From a virus, in IMG/VR virus record IMGVR_UViG_3300050026_000055, positions 1-64,000 of that record: a stretch of 64,000 nt of DNA; one strand, 5' to 3'. The translations under genes were made by a program, and so were the position numbers. Below are positions 21,051-47,260 of this stretch, one piece after another. The notes under the pieces were generated by a model. That model was not told the DNA's origin. It saw only the letters and a program-made list of their open reading frames with translations, and ran no database searches. Each line of letters starts with the position of its first letter. Positions within the stretch are counted from its first letter, which is position 1.

Positions 21051-21092
21051 AAAAAAAAAGCAAGACATTTAAAGAAATGTCTTGCTTTTTTT
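21051..21092. terminator. bidirectional intrinsic terminator
   Basis: A9-GCAAGACATTT-aaag-AAATGTCTTGC-T7. Confidence 0.88.
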
Positions 21093-34841: not shown

Positions 34842-34876
34842 AAAAAAAGAAGGACAGCTTTTTAGGCTGTCCTTTT
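34842..34876. terminator. bidirectional terminator between the convergent genome arms
   Basis: A7, AAGGACAGC/GCTGTCCTT stem, T-run. Confidence 0.85.
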
Positions 34877-36181: not shown

Positions 36182-37447
36182 TCAATCCACGTCTGTATAA
36201 ACTACAGTGCCAATCAATCCTTCGTTTCGATTCCAGATGAATCCTTCTGCACTTCGTAGGTTACCAACGTAGCCCTGCTCCGCGTGCCAATCGTCCGGAG
36301 AACAAAGAGCACTAAGCGTGCGAACACGTACACCATACTTTTCTTCAAGACGAGTCTGGTGAATATGCCCGACATGCGCCTCACGGAACTTAGTCTCACC
36401 AAAATCCTTTGAGCATTCAGTTGCCATTAACAAAGGATACTCGTTCTTTTTTCCTTTGTCTCCGTGTGTCAGCATGAGTAAAACATTGCCAAATCTATGA
36501 TACTTTCGGTAACGTGGCATGTTATCAATTTTAACATCCGCATAATTGTGAAACCAACATTCCAAAGAATCGCCCAAATGCCAAACCGAAAGAGTGTCGT
36601 GGTTTCCTTGAACCATGATTACCTTTACAGGAGCAATCTGCCGTAGCCTCTCAATGGAGTCAATAATCACATTACGAACTGTGGCAAACGTCTTTTGATA
36701 ACGTCCGTCAGTGGTTACGACTGTACCGGATGTAGTCCTAGATTCAGCATCATCCGAATTAAAAAGATCATTACCAACAATATAAACCAGTTCGTCAAAC
36801 GAGTAGCCAGCGGAACGGCTGAGTAAGCAGTCCAACGCTTTTTTGTAGATACTGGCGGCTATCTTAACGTCATAGTTCTTTCCGCCTGTCTCAACGGCCC
36901 ACGCCAGTTTGCCAAAGTGCATGTCAGGAAGATTTACTTCCAGCATGTTTCCTGATGGCTGTTGTCTAGTAATAAACGCTGGTGATGGAGGCGCATAACA
37001 GATTGCAGCAATCTTTAACGACTCCAGTTCGTCTTTAGCGTCAACGATATGCGTCTTTTTGCTACAGAACGCCTTGACCTGAAACAGCGGAGTTTGCGAA
37101 ACGCCGACATCCCATTTATTGAATATGCATTTGTCAATGTTCCACACCGAAAGGTCAATCTTGCAATGTTCGATTAATTGCGCCTCGGTGCAAATCTGTG
37201 TCTTTGGCAAAGATATTATCCACTTGTCACCAGCAACCTCAGAAGATTCGTTTGGCTTCTGAGTTGGCTGTGTTTGGCACAATCCTGCAGCATTCAAAAA
37301 ATCTGTAAAGTTTGCGAAGACTTTGCGGTATGTGCGTTCTGAATAAACGCCCTGTGAACGATATGTTTTACGAGTAACTTTTCCTGAAAACTTGCTTGCC
37401 AATCTCTGAATATCCTTGATTAATTCTTCTTTGGTTATTTTATTCAT
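36182..37447 (-). CDS. calcineurin-like metallophosphoesterase with N-terminal homing-endonuclease-associated repeat
   Basis: DMHFG, GNDLF, GNHD, THGD, GHIH; TKEELI...F..AAGL. Confidence 0.82.
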   Translation of the reverse strand: MNKITKEELIKDIQRLASKFSGKVTRKTYRSQGVYSERTYRKVFANFTDFLNAAGLCQTQPTQKPNESSEVAGDKWIISLPKTQICTEAQLIEHCKIDLSVWNIDKCIFNKWDVGVSQTPLFQVKAFCSKKTHIVDAKDELESLKIAAICYAPPSPAFITRQQPSGNMLEVNLPDMHFGKLAWAVETGGKNYDVKIAASIYKKALDCLLSRSAGYSFDELVYIVGNDLFNSDDAESRTTSGTVVTTDGRYQKTFATVRNVIIDSIERLRQIAPVKVIMVQGNHDTLSVWHLGDSLECWFHNYADVKIDNMPRYRKYHRFGNVLLMLTHGDKGKKNEYPLLMATECSKDFGETKFREAHVGHIHQTRLEEKYGVRVRTLSALCSPDDWHAEQGYVGNLRSAEGFIWNRNEGLIGTVVYTDVD

Positions 37448-37464
37448 GCTCTCCATTTGAATAC

Positions 37465-37493
37465 ATAATACCACACGAACGATAATTTGTCAA
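37465..37493 (-). promoter_or_regulatory. sigma70-type promoter
   Basis: TTGACA-17-TATTAT with TGn on the minus strand. Confidence 0.8.
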
Positions 37494-37496
37494 GCG

Positions 37497-37982
37497 TTAT
37501 TTCTTATTTATTGCTATTAATGTGCCGATAACACGATCAGAGCTACTGTTTATAGCATCCACCAATTTCTCATGGTTGTTTTGTGTTTTTTCAGCCACTC
37601 TCGCAATACCTGCTTCACTGATTTTCAAGGCTTCTTGCGTTTTTTCAGCCACTTTAGCGATGCCTTTTTCGCTAATTCTCAGGGCTTCTTCTGTTTTTTC
37701 GGCCACTTTAGCGATGCCTGCCTCACTAGTTTTTACAGCTTCGATCAGCTTTGCATGCCGTTTTTCTTCCATTTCTTTCTCTAACTCAGTATTTTTAGCA
37801 ATTGCACTAACAATTTCTTCTTTGGCACCTACTAAGTGTGTATGAATAAAATGGTTAACAAATGTTTTTGTTTTCCAGCCTAATAAAAATAAGCCTGATA
37901 AAACTGAAAGAGGAGTCATATATGGATGAAATGCTTTAATTAAGTCAGATAAATTTCTTGCTGGATCATCGGTTACGAACAT
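37497..37982 (-). CDS. membrane protein (holin-like?) with three 16-aa repeats
   Basis: One TM plus coiled coil; SE(A/K)GIA(K/R)VAEKT x3. Confidence 0.65.
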   Translation of the reverse strand: MFVTDDPARNLSDLIKAFHPYMTPLSVLSGLFLLGWKTKTFVNHFIHTHLVGAKEEIVSAIAKNTELEKEMEEKRHAKLIEAVKTSEAGIAKVAEKTEEALRISEKGIAKVAEKTQEALKISEAGIARVAEKTQNNHEKLVDAINSSSDRVIGTLIAINKK

Positions 37983-37994
37983 AGTGTTACCTTC

Positions 37995-38375
37995 TTATTT
38001 CTTTACATTCAGCGCGATCAGTGTGTCTATCAGTCGATCAGAGCTGGCCTTTAAAGCGTCAACAATTCTTTCGTGACCCTCGACTGCCTTTTTGGCCATA
38101 GCGTTCGAGTTTTCGGCGTTTTCTTTTATGGCTTCTACAATTCTTTCGTGCCCCTCATCTTCCGCCTTTATGATTTTTTCTAGAGACTCTTCGTTACGTT
38201 TTACTGCATCGGAAATATCTTGTTTGATATGTGCCAAATGGTTATTGATAAGTGTATCCACAAATCCCCTTACTCTCCAAGCGATTACTGCTAAGGTAGT
38301 AATGATGGATAGAGGAGCGACATAAATCTTGAGTGTTTCATAAAGTCCTATAACAGGATCAGAGTTAACAAACAT
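37995..38375 (-). CDS. membrane protein, paralogue of 37497-37982
   Basis: Shared MFV..DP, PLS, FV...I..HL, SSDR.I.TLIA.N.KK. Confidence 0.65.
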   Translation of the reverse strand: MFVNSDPVIGLYETLKIYVAPLSIITTLAVIAWRVRGFVDTLINNHLAHIKQDISDAVKRNEESLEKIIKAEDEGHERIVEAIKENAENSNAMAKKAVEGHERIVDALKASSDRLIDTLIALNVKK

Positions 38376-38394
38376 GACAAAAAGAGCCCTTTAC

Positions 38395-38598
38395 TTAATT
38401 AAATATTCGATAGTCCGCGACTTGGGTGTGTTTGCTGTAATTACACGGACCGCAAAGTGGCTGGATGTTATCAATATTGCTGGAGCCACCCTTAGATACG
38501 GGAATTATGTGATCCGCAGTTGGCTTGTTAGTTGATGTGTATTCTATACCGCAGCATAGACATTTATTTCCATGCGATATTCTTGGGTTGACATGCAT
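38395..38598 (-). CDS. minimal or remnant HNH endonuclease
   Basis: CLCCG...DHIIPVSKGG...NIQPLCGPCN. Confidence 0.7.
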   Translation of the reverse strand: MHVNPRISHGNKCLCCGIEYTSTNKPTADHIIPVSKGGSSNIDNIQPLCGPCNYSKHTQVADYRIFN

Positions 38599-38603
38599 TT
38601 TCC

Positions 38604-39011
38604 TTACTTGAAGATGGTTAAAGGCCCCATATCCACAATCCGAGGATGAAGCTCTGGCTGGCCGATGATTATGTCCAAAAAAAACCTTGATTCCACATGG
38701 CGCAGGTCGGCCCAGAACATTCCGCCTTTTGCATAATCCTGAGTGTTATCGTAAATTGCCTCAATTTCGTGCAGCAATTTCACAAACGAGGGTTCCCAAA
38801 TCGAAGGGAATACCAATTTTGGCTGTTCAATCGTCGCACTAAATTTGTGTAAATTCTGTAGAACTTCTAAATGCGTTCCCCATCCCGCTCGTATCCTGTT
38901 CATTATACAGGACATAATAAGACAGGACGCAAGGTGTCCACCATAAGGTAAACCGTGCGTGTAACCAACCAATACAATTTGTCCACGAAGGAAATCATCT
39001 TGACGTAAAAT
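38604..39011 (-). CDS. divergent SleB-like cell wall hydrolase with probable ATT start
   Basis: IMNR..AGW, KFS, DYAKGGMFW, MGPLTIF; AGGAGG 6 nt before ATT. Confidence 0.5.
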   Translation of the reverse strand: MLRQDDFLRGQIVLVGYTHGLPYGGHLASCLIMSCIMNRIRAGWGTHLEVLQNLHKFSATIEQPKLVFPSIWEPSFVKLLHEIEAIYDNTQDYAKGGMFWADLRHVESRFFLDIIIGQPELHPRIVDMGPLTIFK

Positions 39012-39036
39012 TTTGCTCCTCCTTATAAATGTATAT

Positions 39037-39217
39037 CCCGGCCAGTCGGCATTAACCAACCGTCCGGGGCTGTGCAAATGTTCGCGACCAGTCAGCCTTT
39101 GCACAACGATGTATAATAAACGAGTCAGGCCATTTGGGACGCGCCCCACGGCTAACTTTGTTCCTGACTCGTATCTTTTCAGACAAACAGATAATACCAT
39201 GACGCCGTCCGTTTGTC
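39037..39217 (-). ncRNA. putative structured RNA leader with four hairpins
   Basis: Stems at 39182-39217, 39120-39172, 39071-39105 and 39037-39068; G-U pairs favour the minus strand. Confidence 0.5.
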
Positions 39218-39232
39218 AAGAGCTGTTCTTGA

Positions 39233-39529
39233 TTATTTTTCAGGCAAATGTAAGGTCGAATCAGGTTCGTACTTTTTGAAATACTGCTGCAATTCACTGG
39301 CCGAATGTTGTTTTAGGTTGAATGGAGAGGCATAGAAATGCCATTTACCGCCAACTTTCTTCCAATCGCCGCCTTCTTGCTCAGGTGTATTGTGTACACT
39401 TTCCTTAGAAAATGTAATATGATTTGGAAGTTTAAACTCGTCAGTCAAATGCTTACCGCCTGATTGATCCGGTTCTCCGTACTTGGCCCTATATCCGGCG
39501 TAGTCATAGTCGTTAGACTCCTTTTTAGG
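39233..39529 (-). CDS. C-terminal extension of 39525-41750 reached by +1 frameshift (no plausible own start)
   Basis: HLTDEFKLPNHITFSKES...GGDW domain opens in the +1 frame at CCC TAA. Confidence 0.6.
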   Translation of the reverse strand, partial: PKKESNDYDYAGYRAKYGEPDQSGGKHLTDEFKLPNHITFSKESVHNTPEQEGGDWKKVGGKWHFYASPFNLKQHSASELQQYFKKYEPDSTLHLPEK

Positions 39530-41750
39530 GAGCCTCCTTCGCGCTATTACCGCCAAGCGGCAAGGCAGTACCTTGGTAGACATCACGTATACCAGCTCTG
39601 TCAGACTTCGGCGGTTTGTTGCCTTTGCCGACTCCCTGAGTCACGGCAGTACTTTGAGCTGCATTTGCCAAACCTGTAGTCACCGGACTACTGGCAATTT
39701 TGCTACCAGCCCCAAATGTTTTCCAAAGAGCAGGATGAGTGCTCAAAAATTCCAAAACACTCTGGCCTGCCTTCATACCGCCAGCAGCACAAGAAAGCCC
39801 AACAATAACGGCGGCAGTTTCTACAGTATTATGACCAGTCAATTCAGTTGCTACACCGGCTCCACCAGCTACGCCAGCAATTACACCAGCTTTTACTAAT
39901 CGCTGCACCATCTGTGCGTTCTTAGCGTTAGAGATTACCTGTTGAGCAAACTTTCCGATTTCAGGCGGCATGTTTACCGGGCTTGGTCCTGTGCCAAACA
40001 ATAGATTGAAGTTATCTTCCGTCAGCGTCTTTTGTGCTTTCGTAACCTGTTTTAACAAATCGCCCGGATCAAAACGACCGGTTTCCTTGTTTACAGCATC
40101 ATCCATCCATGTCTTGAAAACATCTCTGCCGATTGGAAGCATTTTTTCACGGCTACCGATTAGATCACGTAGCGCGCTTACCTTGCCATTAGAATCTCCT
40201 GACAACAGTTCTTTGCCTAAATCGTTGACAGCTTTACCCGGCTCTGTCTCAGCTAATCGTGAGATAGCCTTTGACTCCATAAGAGCATTAGTGGTTCTAT
40301 AATTACCACGCAACTTGGTATACTGATCTGCAACGGATTTAAGTTGAGGATCAGTCTTACCAGCTTTGTCAGCCATTTGTTGAATCGTGTCGTCCACGGA
40401 TGTCATCATTTGCCGCCAAGTACGAGAATTGATGTCACCAAAGCCCATTCGACTCGTCGCGGCGTAATCATCTGCTCCTTTTCTAAGAGCCTGACGAAAT
40501 GAAATAAGATCATTAATGGACCACGGTTTTACTTCCACTGGTTCAGCTTTTCCAGCAGGAGAAAAACCTTCCTCATAATTAAAAGTTCCCTCAGCCGCAT
40601 CAGCCGCCTTAGCTGCCGGAAGTTCTCCCTTTTCTAAATTAGAAAGAAGATTCTTGGTTTTAGCATCAAATCCTTCCGGTGCTCTAGCTTGTGCAACAAA
40701 TGGGTGTGTCTGTGCCGCTTCGTCTTCAGTGCCGGCCAGTATTTTACCTGCACGGCTAGCGATGGGATTGTCTTTAATATCTATTGTTTGACCTTGCAAT
40801 TTTTCTTTAATGTCATTAATACCGTGTTCAAAGTCGGTATGCATCTGCAATCGTTTGGCTTCAATCTCACTTCTGACTGCACCGACAACTTCAGTCTTTT
40901 CCGGCGCTGTCTTTGCAACTTTAGCTAACTCATCAAGAGTCTTACCGGCTTTTGCACCAGCAGCCAAACCGCCTTTAATAGCCGCACCAGCCGCACCAAC
41001 CGTGCCAGAAAGAGCAGCCATTGCACCGCCCTCTTTCAAAGCCTGACCGGTGTCACCAGTTTTAACTTTAGTCTGACCTGCCTGTACTGCGCCTTGACGA
41101 ACGGCGTTGCCGACCACATTAGCAGCTTCAGGATGCTTTGCTACCATCTCTGTTCCATACTTCAACGCATTTACAATGCGTGGAGATAGTTCAAGAGTCT
41201 GAGCAATTTTAGCAGCCTTCATTAACTTAGCTCCGGTAGCTAACCCAGCCAAAGCAGGATCACCAAGAATAAATTCTGTCAAACTTTCGCCAGCATATCC
41301 TATACTTTCTGCAGTACCTTTAGGCGTAAGATCGGTTTGAAGTTGGCCTTGTGCATCTCGCATCTCAGAGCCGGTGGGTGAATCTTCAGGATTGATGCCG
41401 GAATATTCGGACGGCAACATTTGTTTGGTATTAGTAGGCACCGCATTTACAGCAGACCTAGCAATTCCTGAAATAGTTGATCCAATGCCCTTCATGTATC
41501 CAGTAGCCGCGCCAAGCAAACCACCGGCTACTCTGGTAGCCCCCGCTTGGTTAGTGGCTGCATCTGAACCACTTAAAGGACCGGCAGGAATAGCCTTCAT
41601 TCCGTTTTGTGGAATCTCGACATTGCCGCTAGTATAGCCAGAACTAGACGCACCATTGCCCGCCTGAGATTGATCTTCAGGAGCAGGTGTAGAAGTTGGA
41701 GTCTGCCCCGGAAAGCTAACATTACCTGATGTATAGTCATTGCCTGCCAT
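39525..41750 (-). CDS. internal virion / DNA ejection protein
   Basis: 741 aa, Ala/Gly-rich helical, hydrophobic C-terminal segments; adjacent to the SLT protein. Confidence 0.65.
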   Translation of the reverse strand: MAGNDYTSGNVSFPGQTPTSTPAPEDQSQAGNGASSSGYTSGNVEIPQNGMKAIPAGPLSGSDAATNQAGATRVAGGLLGAATGYMKGIGSTISGIARSAVNAVPTNTKQMLPSEYSGINPEDSPTGSEMRDAQGQLQTDLTPKGTAESIGYAGESLTEFILGDPALAGLATGAKLMKAAKIAQTLELSPRIVNALKYGTEMVAKHPEAANVVGNAVRQGAVQAGQTKVKTGDTGQALKEGGAMAALSGTVGAAGAAIKGGLAAGAKAGKTLDELAKVAKTAPEKTEVVGAVRSEIEAKRLQMHTDFEHGINDIKEKLQGQTIDIKDNPIASRAGKILAGTEDEAAQTHPFVAQARAPEGFDAKTKNLLSNLEKGELPAAKAADAAEGTFNYEEGFSPAGKAEPVEVKPWSINDLISFRQALRKGADDYAATSRMGFGDINSRTWRQMMTSVDDTIQQMADKAGKTDPQLKSVADQYTKLRGNYRTTNALMESKAISRLAETEPGKAVNDLGKELLSGDSNGKVSALRDLIGSREKMLPIGRDVFKTWMDDAVNKETGRFDPGDLLKQVTKAQKTLTEDNFNLLFGTGPSPVNMPPEIGKFAQQVISNAKNAQMVQRLVKAGVIAGVAGGAGVATELTGHNTVETAAVIVGLSCAAGGMKAGQSVLEFLSTHPALWKTFGAGSKIASSPVTTGLANAAQSTAVTQGVGKGNKPPKSDRAGIRDVYQGTALPLGGNSAKEAP

Positions 41751-45949: not shown

Positions 45950-47260
45950 TTAACCTAACTCTATAATTTGAAACTCACTCCAGTTTACAAGGCCTTGATC
46001 GAAAGTTGAAGCTGCTGCGGCAATAATTTGATAGTTATGCGATCCTGCTGTTGGATTATCCAAATAAGAAAGTGATGATGTAGTGAATAACGTTAATGAA
46101 GTACCAGTGCCAGTTTTGGCTTCACAGGTACAGGTGGCATTACCACTTACCAAAGAACCGTCTCTAAACAGAAAAAATGCACCACCAGATAATAATGCAC
46201 TACCTGTAGTTGCCAAAACAACATTAGCGTGAAATGTAATAAGTACTGGATTGCCTTTAAAGGTAGCTGTGATCGTATTAGTACCTAACTGTGCTGGTGT
46301 TGAAGACGGCGGAAAAGAAAGATTCGCCACACCTTGGTTGGCAGTCAGGATATTCTTTAACTGCAAATTACCGTTGGCATAAATAGGAGTAATAGCTGTA
46401 GCATCTCCAGCAAACTCAGGAGTGCTCTCCAGTCCTATCTGATTTACAGATGTCACCCAATAGTAATCAACTGATCCTAATGGCACCGTCTCTTGATATG
46501 TATATATACCGGTAGCTGATGGATCGGCTGTTAGGTTGGAAGGTTGTGACACAGCCTTTAGAAATCCTGCTGTTCCGGGAAATGAGTTACTTGAGTTTTT
46601 GTATATGTTATATCCCATTATAACATCTGCTGCTAAACCGGCTATATAATTAAACTGAAATTGATAACCAGTTGGTGTAACACTTAACGAATTTGCAATT
46701 GATGGAGGCGACGGATTGGAAAGCACACCATTTATAGTAAGTGTAGTAGTCGGTGCAGTAGCAAATAATGGAAATACTCCTGATGGAGAAACCGAGTTAA
46801 CGGTAATTAATACCGTTTCTTTTGTGGTTTCCACCAAAAAACTAACAGGAGAAATGTGCCCTGTAGTCATCAATTGAGGATAGGGATTTCCGTTATACCC
46901 GGAAAACCATATCTGTATTCCAGACCAATTTACATCAACAGGAGGATCAAAACTAACAGATACCGCTGTAAACATCTGTCCATTCTTGTTCTTATAAGGA
47001 GACTCTGCAGCCGCCACAGAAGTGACATATGCTGGTATACCGCTAGGACTGCCACCACCACCACTAGTACCGCCAGTGCCGGGAACCACTATTGTATTGC
47101 TTACTGCTTGAGTAGGCGATACAATAGTGGTTGGAGCAGCTAGTGGTGTTTGCCAAGCAGCTTCAGTTGGAACAGAAGCAGACAAATTGGTTATATTCGT
47201 TTGTGTTATTGTATCCAAAACTGAATTTGGTATTTGACTTACTGTTGGAACACTACTCAT
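45950..47260 (-). CDS. tail protein with fibronectin type III-like domains
   Basis: GYNIYK...YYWVTSVN..GLES. Confidence 0.65.
   Translation of the reverse strand: MSSVPTVSQIPNSVLDTITQTNITNLSASVPTEAAWQTPLAAPTTIVSPTQAVSNTIVVPGTGGTSGGGGSPSGIPAYVTSVAAAESPYKNKNGQMFTAVSVSFDPPVDVNWSGIQIWFSGYNGNPYPQLMTTGHISPVSFLVETTKETVLITVNSVSPSGVFPLFATAPTTTLTINGVLSNPSPPSIANSLSVTPTGYQFQFNYIAGLAADVIMGYNIYKNSSNSFPGTAGFLKAVSQPSNLTADPSATGIYTYQETVPLGSVDYYWVTSVNQIGLESTPEFAGDATAITPIYANGNLQLKNILTANQGVANLSFPPSSTPAQLGTNTITATFKGNPVLITFHANVVLATTGSALLSGGAFFLFRDGSLVSGNATCTCEAKTGTGTSLTLFTTSSLSYLDNPTAGSHNYQIIAAAASTFDQGLVNWSEFQIIELG

Follow-up and report, generated by a model that had tools for sequence, protein, structure and literature searches.

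The minus-strand hairpins H2 to H4 (39172-39037) form the 5' leader of a gene for a 135-aa protein with a SleB-like fold, and we propose that they represent a lineage-specific structured 5' untranslated region (UTR) of a probable lysis cassette, which most likely influences how stable the mRNA is or how it is processed, or serves as a protein-recognition site. We assign this reading a probability of about 0.5. The window, by which we mean the whole stretch of DNA analyzed here, comprises the first 64 kb of a virus record of 96,280 bp with direct terminal repeats, and nearly all public runs containing this stretch are peat metagenomes; runs X1-X10 contain the phage itself or near relatives. Burst size is decided by the timing and dosage of the lysis genes, and devices that control these genes at the RNA level are barely known outside a few model phages. 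In an uncultured peat phage of 96 kb, the present locus brings together a host promoter that looks constitutive, a conserved leader with three hairpins and an AUU codon as the weak start of a SleB-like gene; with promoter and leader contained within 230 nt, it makes a compact test case for the restraint of lysis genes. The general importance is limited, as the leader belongs to one narrow lineage and we infer its function. Carriers of the leader were found in three lineages only, namely the window, the metagenome contig L043, whose gene product is 73% identical in protein to that of the window, and the peat variant X5, which corresponds to protein P0001.

Promoter, leader and downstream genes

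The plus strand carries early and replication genes and the minus strand a long virion operon reaching down to about 39.5 kb; the leader site lies on the minus strand between the virion operon and the next genes. The features discussed below are the following.

39191-39219, minus strand: sigma-70-type promoter, with -35 TTGACA at 39219-39214, a 17-nt spacer and an extended -10 TGgTATTAT at 39199-39191
39182-39217, minus strand: H1, a 10-bp inverted repeat enclosing the promoter (stem 39217-39208 / 39191-39182)
39108-39178, minus strand: H2 block of 71 nt, composed of H2 and its U/A-rich tail UUUAUUAUACAUC (columns 60-130 of alignment A3, identical in window and L043)
39172-39120, minus strand: H2, with an outer stem 39172-39164 / 39128-39120 and an inner hairpin 39152-39145 / 39138-39129
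39069-39107, minus strand: H3, a 10-bp stem (39107-39098 / 39078-39069) with a 19-nt loop
39037-39068, minus strand: H4, a stem of 5 + 8 bp (39068-39055 / 39050-39037) with a 1x1 A/G internal loop
39009-39036, minus strand: translation initiation region, made up of an unpaired A/U-rich spacer, AAGGAGG at 39024-39018, 6 nt and ATT at 39011-39009
38604-39011, minus strand: gene for the 135-aa protein with a SleB-like (lytic transglycosylase) fold according to AlphaFold2 and Foldseek, first gene of the probable lysis cassette
38395-38598, minus strand: HNH endonuclease gene (67 aa), between the SleB-like gene and a pair of paralogues

In a simple promoter scan the promoter matched the sigma-70 consensus at 11 of 12 positions and had the upstream TG in addition; judged from the sequence, transcription is predicted to start near G39184, about 7 nt past the -10 hexamer. 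A genome-wide scan gave about 25 near-consensus sigma-70-type promoters over both genome arms, most of them lying some tens of bases ahead of a start codon with its ribosome-binding site, and a twin promoter (TTGACA-17-TGgTATTAT) was seen before the exonuclease gene (37465-37493, minus strand). L043 keeps the promoter as TTGACA-17-TGgTAGTAT. X5 also has TTGACA, its promoter lying near the contig end, where differences are unlisted. Since neither a phage RNA polymerase nor a phage sigma factor was detected, use of the host polymerase is plausible.

The earlier note on this DNA, made from the letters alone, had described a four-hairpin RNA at this site. We found all four stems on the minus strand at the places it gave, and the minimum-free-energy fold reproduces them; however, only H2 to H4 stood as an RNA leader, while H1 is the promoter, is not conserved and does not belong to the RNA. 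The 5' arm of H1, GACAAACGGA, starts within the -35 hexamer and the 3' arm at the last T of the -10 hexamer. As the 5' arm lies upstream of the predicted start (about 39184), H1 falls outside the promoter-derived transcript. A 10-nt gap in L043 takes out 7 of the 10 positions of the H1 3' arm (alignment A3). We rejected H1 as a conserved RNA element, given that its 5' arm coincides with the -35 box and its 3' arm is deleted in L043, the only fetched relative having the leader.

The AlphaFold2 model of the 135-aa gene product reached a pLDDT of 95.7, and its best three Foldseek matches in the PDB were SleB catalytic domains (4fet, 4f55; probability 0.99-1.0, TM 0.56-0.64, E 0.04-0.08). Searches of Pfam and PHROG gave no match, and a profile search of PDB sequences returned no SleB match. 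The SleB fold was thus found by Foldseek on the AlphaFold2 model and the Pfam family model was not matched, so we regard the protein as SleB-like in its modelled fold and do not assign it to the SleB / Hydrolase_2 family. The gene is followed by the HNH endonuclease gene and then by genes for two paralogues that each combine a single N-terminal membrane helix with a coiled coil. These paralogues of 126 and 161 aa (37497-38375, minus strand), whose tails are coiled coils or repeats, are possibly holin- or spanin-like partners of the SleB-like gene. The label 'lysis cassette' for the SleB-like gene and its followers is plausible, not proven.

Between the leader and the downstream genes, a simple terminator scan (37000-41000) detected nothing canonical, and its only minus-strand match was a weak 5-bp one inside the exonuclease gene; a compact canonical terminator is present only at the arm junction (34852-34872). 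A second, permissive scan returned 299 matches and was left out of the results. Compact bidirectional terminators with A- and T-tract flanks occur at 34852-34872 and 21058-21087 of the window and at 90083-90103 of the genome, and the 21-nt hairpin sequence at the junction of the convergent arms (34852) recurs near 90.1 kb in the opposite orientation.

The coding status of the leader region was judged from the relatives. The 198-aa open reading frame (ORF) 39200-38604 has 41 homologues, about 40 of which are of about 135 aa and cover only its last 68%; in the alignments these begin at M/L/V-LRQDD, which corresponds to ATT 39011 of the window. In L043 the codons before ATT are TAA AGG AGG CGC AAA, and because this in-frame TAA stands four codons before it, ATT is the sole possible start there. 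Relative to the window, the 39200 frame is disrupted in L043 by indels of 10 nt and 1 nt, and the 39297 ORF extends into a block that is missing from L043. On these sequence comparisons the leader region is non-coding in the relatives, and the suspicion that the 39200 or 39297 ORF might be conserved as protein, which would have spoken against a leader, was not borne out. An antisense ORF (39013-39279) was rejected as a gene, its frame not being kept in L043. A 9-codon upstream ORF (39023-39052, minus strand) begins with an AUG in the H4 loop (39052) and ends with a UAA overlapping the Shine-Dalgarno sequence; both the window and X5 have it. Absent from L043 and lacking a Shine-Dalgarno sequence of its own, it was discarded as a coupling device.

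Non-canonical ATA and ATT starts recur in the SleB-like family (window 39011; L009, L007, L022, L026 and L027 at about 3001 or at the match start). Among about 23 distinct lineages the first codon before LRQDD was ATG in 7, GTG in 5, TTG in 5, ATT in 2 and ATA in 4. Several of the ATA/ATT lineages have an in-frame stop 3-5 codons upstream and therefore have no possible canonical start.

Upstream of the leader, a 117-aa ORF (39233-39586, minus strand) follows the 741-aa virion gene in the +1 frame, with no usable start codon past the stop of that gene. A block of about 300 nt (39252-39552) is missing in L043 and in the X5 variant, and the 730-aa gene of L043 stops at the codon homologous to the stop of the 117-aa ORF (GGAAAATAA vs TGAAAAATAA). 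Contigs of runs X2 and X4 reproduce the window sequence at 39233-39586 with zero differences, so that an assembly error is unlikely. This picture fits a frameshift-dependent C-terminal extension, or a decaying one.

Folding, conservation and distribution of the hairpins

The minimum-free-energy fold of the four-hairpin region (39240-39005) has -79.9 kcal/mol (z -4.57; none of 200 shuffles was as good), and H2 to H4 alone (39178-39033) fold at -58.4 kcal/mol (z -3.96). The opposite strand of H2 to H4 reaches -48.1 kcal/mol (z -2.93), and overall the sense strand outfolds the antisense strand by 5-10 kcal/mol, in line with the earlier reading that the G-U pairs favour the minus strand. When 9614 windows of 146 nt from both strands of the whole genome were ordered by GC-adjusted folding energy, the leader came about 27th. 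The hairpins are real, strand-specific and unusual, yet not unique within the genome. In L043 the same three hairpins were predicted independently (z -3.87), and in both window and L043 the minimum-free-energy and centroid folds give these three hairpins with no conserved alternative. A structured non-coding leader ahead of the ATT-started gene, as the earlier note had supposed, is borne out by these folds and by the homologues that begin at ATT.

Elsewhere in the genome, a 22-bp inverted repeat with a 5-nt loop lies at 47084-47132 (plus-strand reading), inside the minus-strand virion gene 45950-47260. It is perfect as RNA if G-U pairs are counted, and the 241 nt around it fold at z -4.29, the most structured segment of the genome.

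H2, which alone folds at -22.0 kcal/mol, consists of a 9-bp outer stem, a one-sided 11-nt internal loop with the unpaired sequence AACAAAGUUAG, and an 8-bp inner hairpin with a 2-nt bulge. Its stem runs straight into UUUAUUAU (6 U in 8). The statement that no stem is followed by a U-tract holds for H3 and H4 and is not quite correct for H2, itself a branched hairpin of 53 nt that differs from the compact terminators of the phage. H4 adjoins H3 with zero linker, and the two may be seen as a coaxial stack of about 23 bp next to the 9 + 8 bp of H2. In the modelled folds the geometry of H2 and of H3 + H4 is compatible with an RNase III processing site (about two helical turns), as a candidate only. 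Two short motifs recur in the leader: UAUACA(U) appears after H2 and again after H4 just ahead of the Shine-Dalgarno sequence, and hexamers resembling CUGACU lie in the H2 3' arm, the H3 loop and the H4 3' arm, where they are only partly kept in L043. The Shine-Dalgarno sequence pairs with a non-conserved coding segment in the window and differently in L043, so no conserved pairing of it was found.

Next, we compared the leader between its carriers. Window and L043 share 71 consecutive identical positions (39178-39108, alignment A3), whereas their identity is 78% in the H3-H4 part of the leader and about 65% at the DNA level in the gene. The X5 leader was rebuilt by applying the differences listed for X5 to the window; as its translation equals P0001 exactly, the X5 variant exists independently in a JGI contig. 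In X5, H2 carries a single change (C39171 to U), by which a C-G pair becomes U-G. The H3 5' arm of X5 lies near the contig end, where differences are unlisted, and its listed 3' arm is of the L043 type. Between window and L043, 3 of the 10 pairs of H3 are changed on both sides and 2 on one side in a compatible way, leaving 100% of the cells paired; in slid controls, with the partners moved by 1-3 columns, 26-46% of the cells were paired. The 13 pairs of H4 show two compatible single changes in the same comparison, and H4 folds in all three alleles (-22.8 kcal/mol in the window, -20.1 kcal/mol in X5 and a perfect 12-bp stem in L043). Changes in its stem are only transitions among G-C, G-U and A-U, with G-C to G-U in X5, and its internal loop reads A/G in the window and C/U in X5, or is an A-U pair. 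The H4 loop is not conserved in sequence (UUAAUG, CGACA and CGAUG in the three lineages).

H3 and H4 thus vary among the relatives in ways that preserve the structure, and the lack of covariation that would have spoken against the RNA was not observed. Compensatory changes, the generic mark of a structured RNA, were found on two to three alleles, and the invariant H2 is uninformative for pairing. The covariation score was reached by 56 of 500 column shuffles, and the covariation rests on very few independent events, that is, three lineages and effectively two alleles for H3 and H4. X5 is mosaic at the hairpin boundaries: its gene has 2 listed differences in 412 positions and its H2 differs by 1 nt, while H3-H4 resembles L043, with 15 differences in about 50 nt (39037-39108). 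Because the genomes are mosaic in this way (a window-type gene beside L043-type H3 + H4), some of the perfect identity of H2 could stem from recent exchange of this segment instead of selection.

Neither of the two loop-loop pairings suggested earlier was supported. The pairing of H2 with the H3 loop (AGUUAGCC with GGCUGACU) has 8 pairs in the window, but L043 has GACUGACC, which breaks two of them (6 of 8), and part of AGUUAGCC is also used by the inner stem of H2; a core of 5 pairs is possible and does not exceed chance. The pairing of the H1 loop with H4 is present in the window, but the H4 loop varies, and L043 has lost most of the H1 3' arm.

The SleB-like gene is encoded at 41 viral loci and in most of them is adjacent to the large gene before it (gap of -8 to 44 nt). 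A strong promoter at this junction was found elsewhere only in the L002 lineage and in L014, and their leaders differ (almost none in L002, about 81 nt in L014). A blastn search of 38500-39700 against annotated phage records gave no match, and against the 41 related viral loci neither the leader (blastn) nor the 117-aa ORF (tblastn) gave more than chance-level matches. A covariance model of H2 to H4 (R1), searched against the window, the rest of the genome, 32 related loci, 2 metagenome-assembled-genome loci and the full records of 28 related phages, matched only the window and L043; the element is absent from all 28 phage records. Exact-pattern scans with three pieces of H2 against viral contigs yielded no matches, the cluster members of P0001 added no leader variants, and a protein profile scan of the genome collection returned only two metagenome-assembled-genome contigs, both without the leader. 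A single RNA-library contig spans only 38823-38974, within the gene, and is uninformative on the leader. As to known RNAs, Rfam gave no match for 38000-40500 with relaxed filters and E up to 10 and, at gathering scores, only two tRNAs in the whole window and L043, and ARAGORN reported nothing in the leader region. The view of the element as an undescribed RNA therefore agrees with our Rfam search, which found no counterpart, and we found nothing specific to such a leader in the literature.

Possible functions of the leader

In the reading we prefer, the strong sigma-70-like, host-type promoter would drive a leader of about 170 nt, from about 39184 to ATT 39011. This leader would fold as H2, H3 and H4, leaving the A/U-rich ribosome-binding region, with its strong Shine-Dalgarno sequence and weak AUU start, single-stranded. 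H2 to H4 may then act in cis on the lysis-cassette mRNA as stability or processing determinants, with the stacked hairpins near the 5' end as putative sites of the RNase III or RNase E type, and may insulate the initiation region from upstream sequence in promoter-derived as well as read-through transcripts. H2 would serve as a sequence-specific recognition element for a protein or nuclease, H3 and H4 as purely structural parts. Given the predicted start, 12 unpaired nt precede H2 in the window and about 3-6 in L043, so that a simple model of a stabiliser formed by a 5'-terminal hairpin suits L043 better than the window. Judged from the sequences of the relatives, most of which put the SleB-like gene directly after the large virion gene, the leader is an add-on module of a narrow phage lineage; since these relatives manage without it, the element is dispensable for the gene as such.

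Attenuation at H2 is the main rival, though we consider it rather unlikely. Here H2 and its U-rich tail would act as an attenuator close to the promoter or terminate a short RNA, so that transcription stops about 65-75 nt downstream until a late factor or condition permits read-through, and the product may be a small RNA. A near-consensus constitutive promoter before probable lysis genes would call for a delaying device, which we infer rather than observe. The H2 stem ends directly in the U-rich tract, H2 of L043 starts within a few nt of the predicted transcription start, and the entire 71-nt block is invariant including loops and tail, which suits a site for a factor or polymerase better than a mere hairpin. 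However, H2 is a 53-nt branched hairpin and differs from the compact A-tract/hairpin/U-tract terminators of this phage (34852-34872, 21058-87, 90083-103), and it was not flagged by the terminator scan. Ahead of H2 the transcript offers no sequence for an alternative antiterminator, and no Q-type antiterminator gene was found in the complete 96-kb genome, PF06530 and PF03589 being absent; the search for PF06323 carries no weight, as its control matched nothing in any genome. A -10-like AAAGAT is shifted by 10 nt relative to the promoter between window and L043, which argues against a conserved sigma-dependent pause, and no boxA/boxB-like nut motifs were seen on reading the leader sequence.

It is unlikely, in our estimate, that promoter and H2 together form an undescribed cis-regulatory RNA module in which a late factor of the phage, or RNA polymerase itself, recognises the invariant 71-nt element. 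This element would then control passage from the constitutive promoter into the lysis cassette at the level of transcription or translation. If true, this module would set the timing of lysis without a Q-type protein. An independent non-coding RNA is conceivable for promoter and H2 only. The more specific roles named before (switch, antiterminator, ribozyme) were not supported, since we found no conserved Shine-Dalgarno sequestration, no conserved alternative fold and no Q-type gene.

Next among the rivals, and quite unlikely, comes H2 as an operator at which an RNA-binding protein of phage or host would repress or activate translation, or a leader that pairs with a trans-acting RNA, either of which would set the timing or level of the AUU gene. 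The invariance of the unpaired parts of H2 (internal loop, bulge, apical loop and tail) would suit a binding site, as would the UAUACA(U) repeated after H2 and after H4 and the recurrent CUGACU-like hexamers, but these hexamers are only partly kept in L043. No candidate binding protein was identified, the leader has no significant complementarity to the rest of the genome, and H2 lies about 95 nt from the Shine-Dalgarno sequence (39024-39018), which makes direct occlusion unlikely.

The hairpins might also have no function of their own, being relics of mosaic recombination junctions or of an inserted module; the promoter cassette would then have moved together with its flank, and the apparent conservation would reflect recent common descent. 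The leader is missing in all other relatives, breakpoints flank the hairpins (the X5 gene and H2 are of the window type, H3 + H4 of the L043 type), and the 10-nt and roughly 300-nt indels lie immediately beside the leader. This account is improbable nevertheless, considering the three double compensatory changes in the 10-bp H3 stem, the exclusively wobble-compatible changes of H4 across three alleles, the conservation of H2 beyond both flanks and the protein-coding gene, and the strand specificity of the fold.

A ligand-sensing riboswitch, thermosensor or self-cleaving ribozyme is very improbable: the several stems and the conserved unpaired nucleotides of H2 would suit one, and as no known family fits an undescribed class is conceivable, but Rfam gave no match even at E up to 10 with relaxed filters, an expression platform is lacking (no alternate sequestration of the Shine-Dalgarno sequence or of a terminator is conserved), as is a conserved pseudoknot (both loop-loop pairings degrade in the relatives), and the element is confined to one narrow lineage, before a lysis enzyme rather than a metabolic gene.

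Comparison with known systems

The preferred reading, a structured leader acting in cis on the lysis-cassette mRNA, can be set beside several well-studied systems. The late leader of lambda consists of the pR' promoter, the 6S RNA, the tR' terminator and the Q antiterminator. Our locus resembles it in having a constitutive sigma-70 promoter just upstream of lysis genes, followed by a structured untranslated leader of about 170-190 nt. In contrast to lambda, the leader has no compact intrinsic terminator (only the U-rich tail of H2), no conserved sigma-dependent pause and no sequence similarity, and no Q-family gene was detected. With the RNase III signals of T7 (R1.1) it shares intergenic hairpins in a polycistronic phage mRNA and, in H2, an internal loop between two stems of about 9 bp. 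The internal loop of H2 is one-sided (11 nt vs 0), however, the sequences are not similar, the hairpins here follow a promoter of their own, and their cleavage would be putative.

Like the leaders of E. coli ompA, phage SP82 and T4 gene 32, the leader is a long 5' UTR whose hairpins stand close to the 5' end and whose A/U-rich ribosome-binding region stays single-stranded; unlike in these stabilisers, 12 unpaired nt would precede H2 in the window, given the predicted start. H1 of the window is reminiscent of the T4 lysozyme gene (gene e) as a hairpin with a promoter inside, placed before a lysis enzyme gene, and as in gene e read-through transcripts could form it while promoter-derived ones lack its 5' arm. 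It differs from gene e in that it excludes the ribosome-binding site, which is 160 nt away, and in not being conserved in L043. The weak AUU start behind a good Shine-Dalgarno sequence recalls infC and pcnB, with AUU/AUA starts in 6 of about 23 lineages of the SleB-like family; in contrast to infC, no link to IF3 is shown here, and leader structure plays no part in control of the infC type. Of the defining features of known elements, the locus has only the sigma-70 promoter and a structured RNA with compensatory change, and those of no specific family. Taken together, the leader is a new, narrowly distributed case of a known kind of element, the structured phage mRNA leader.
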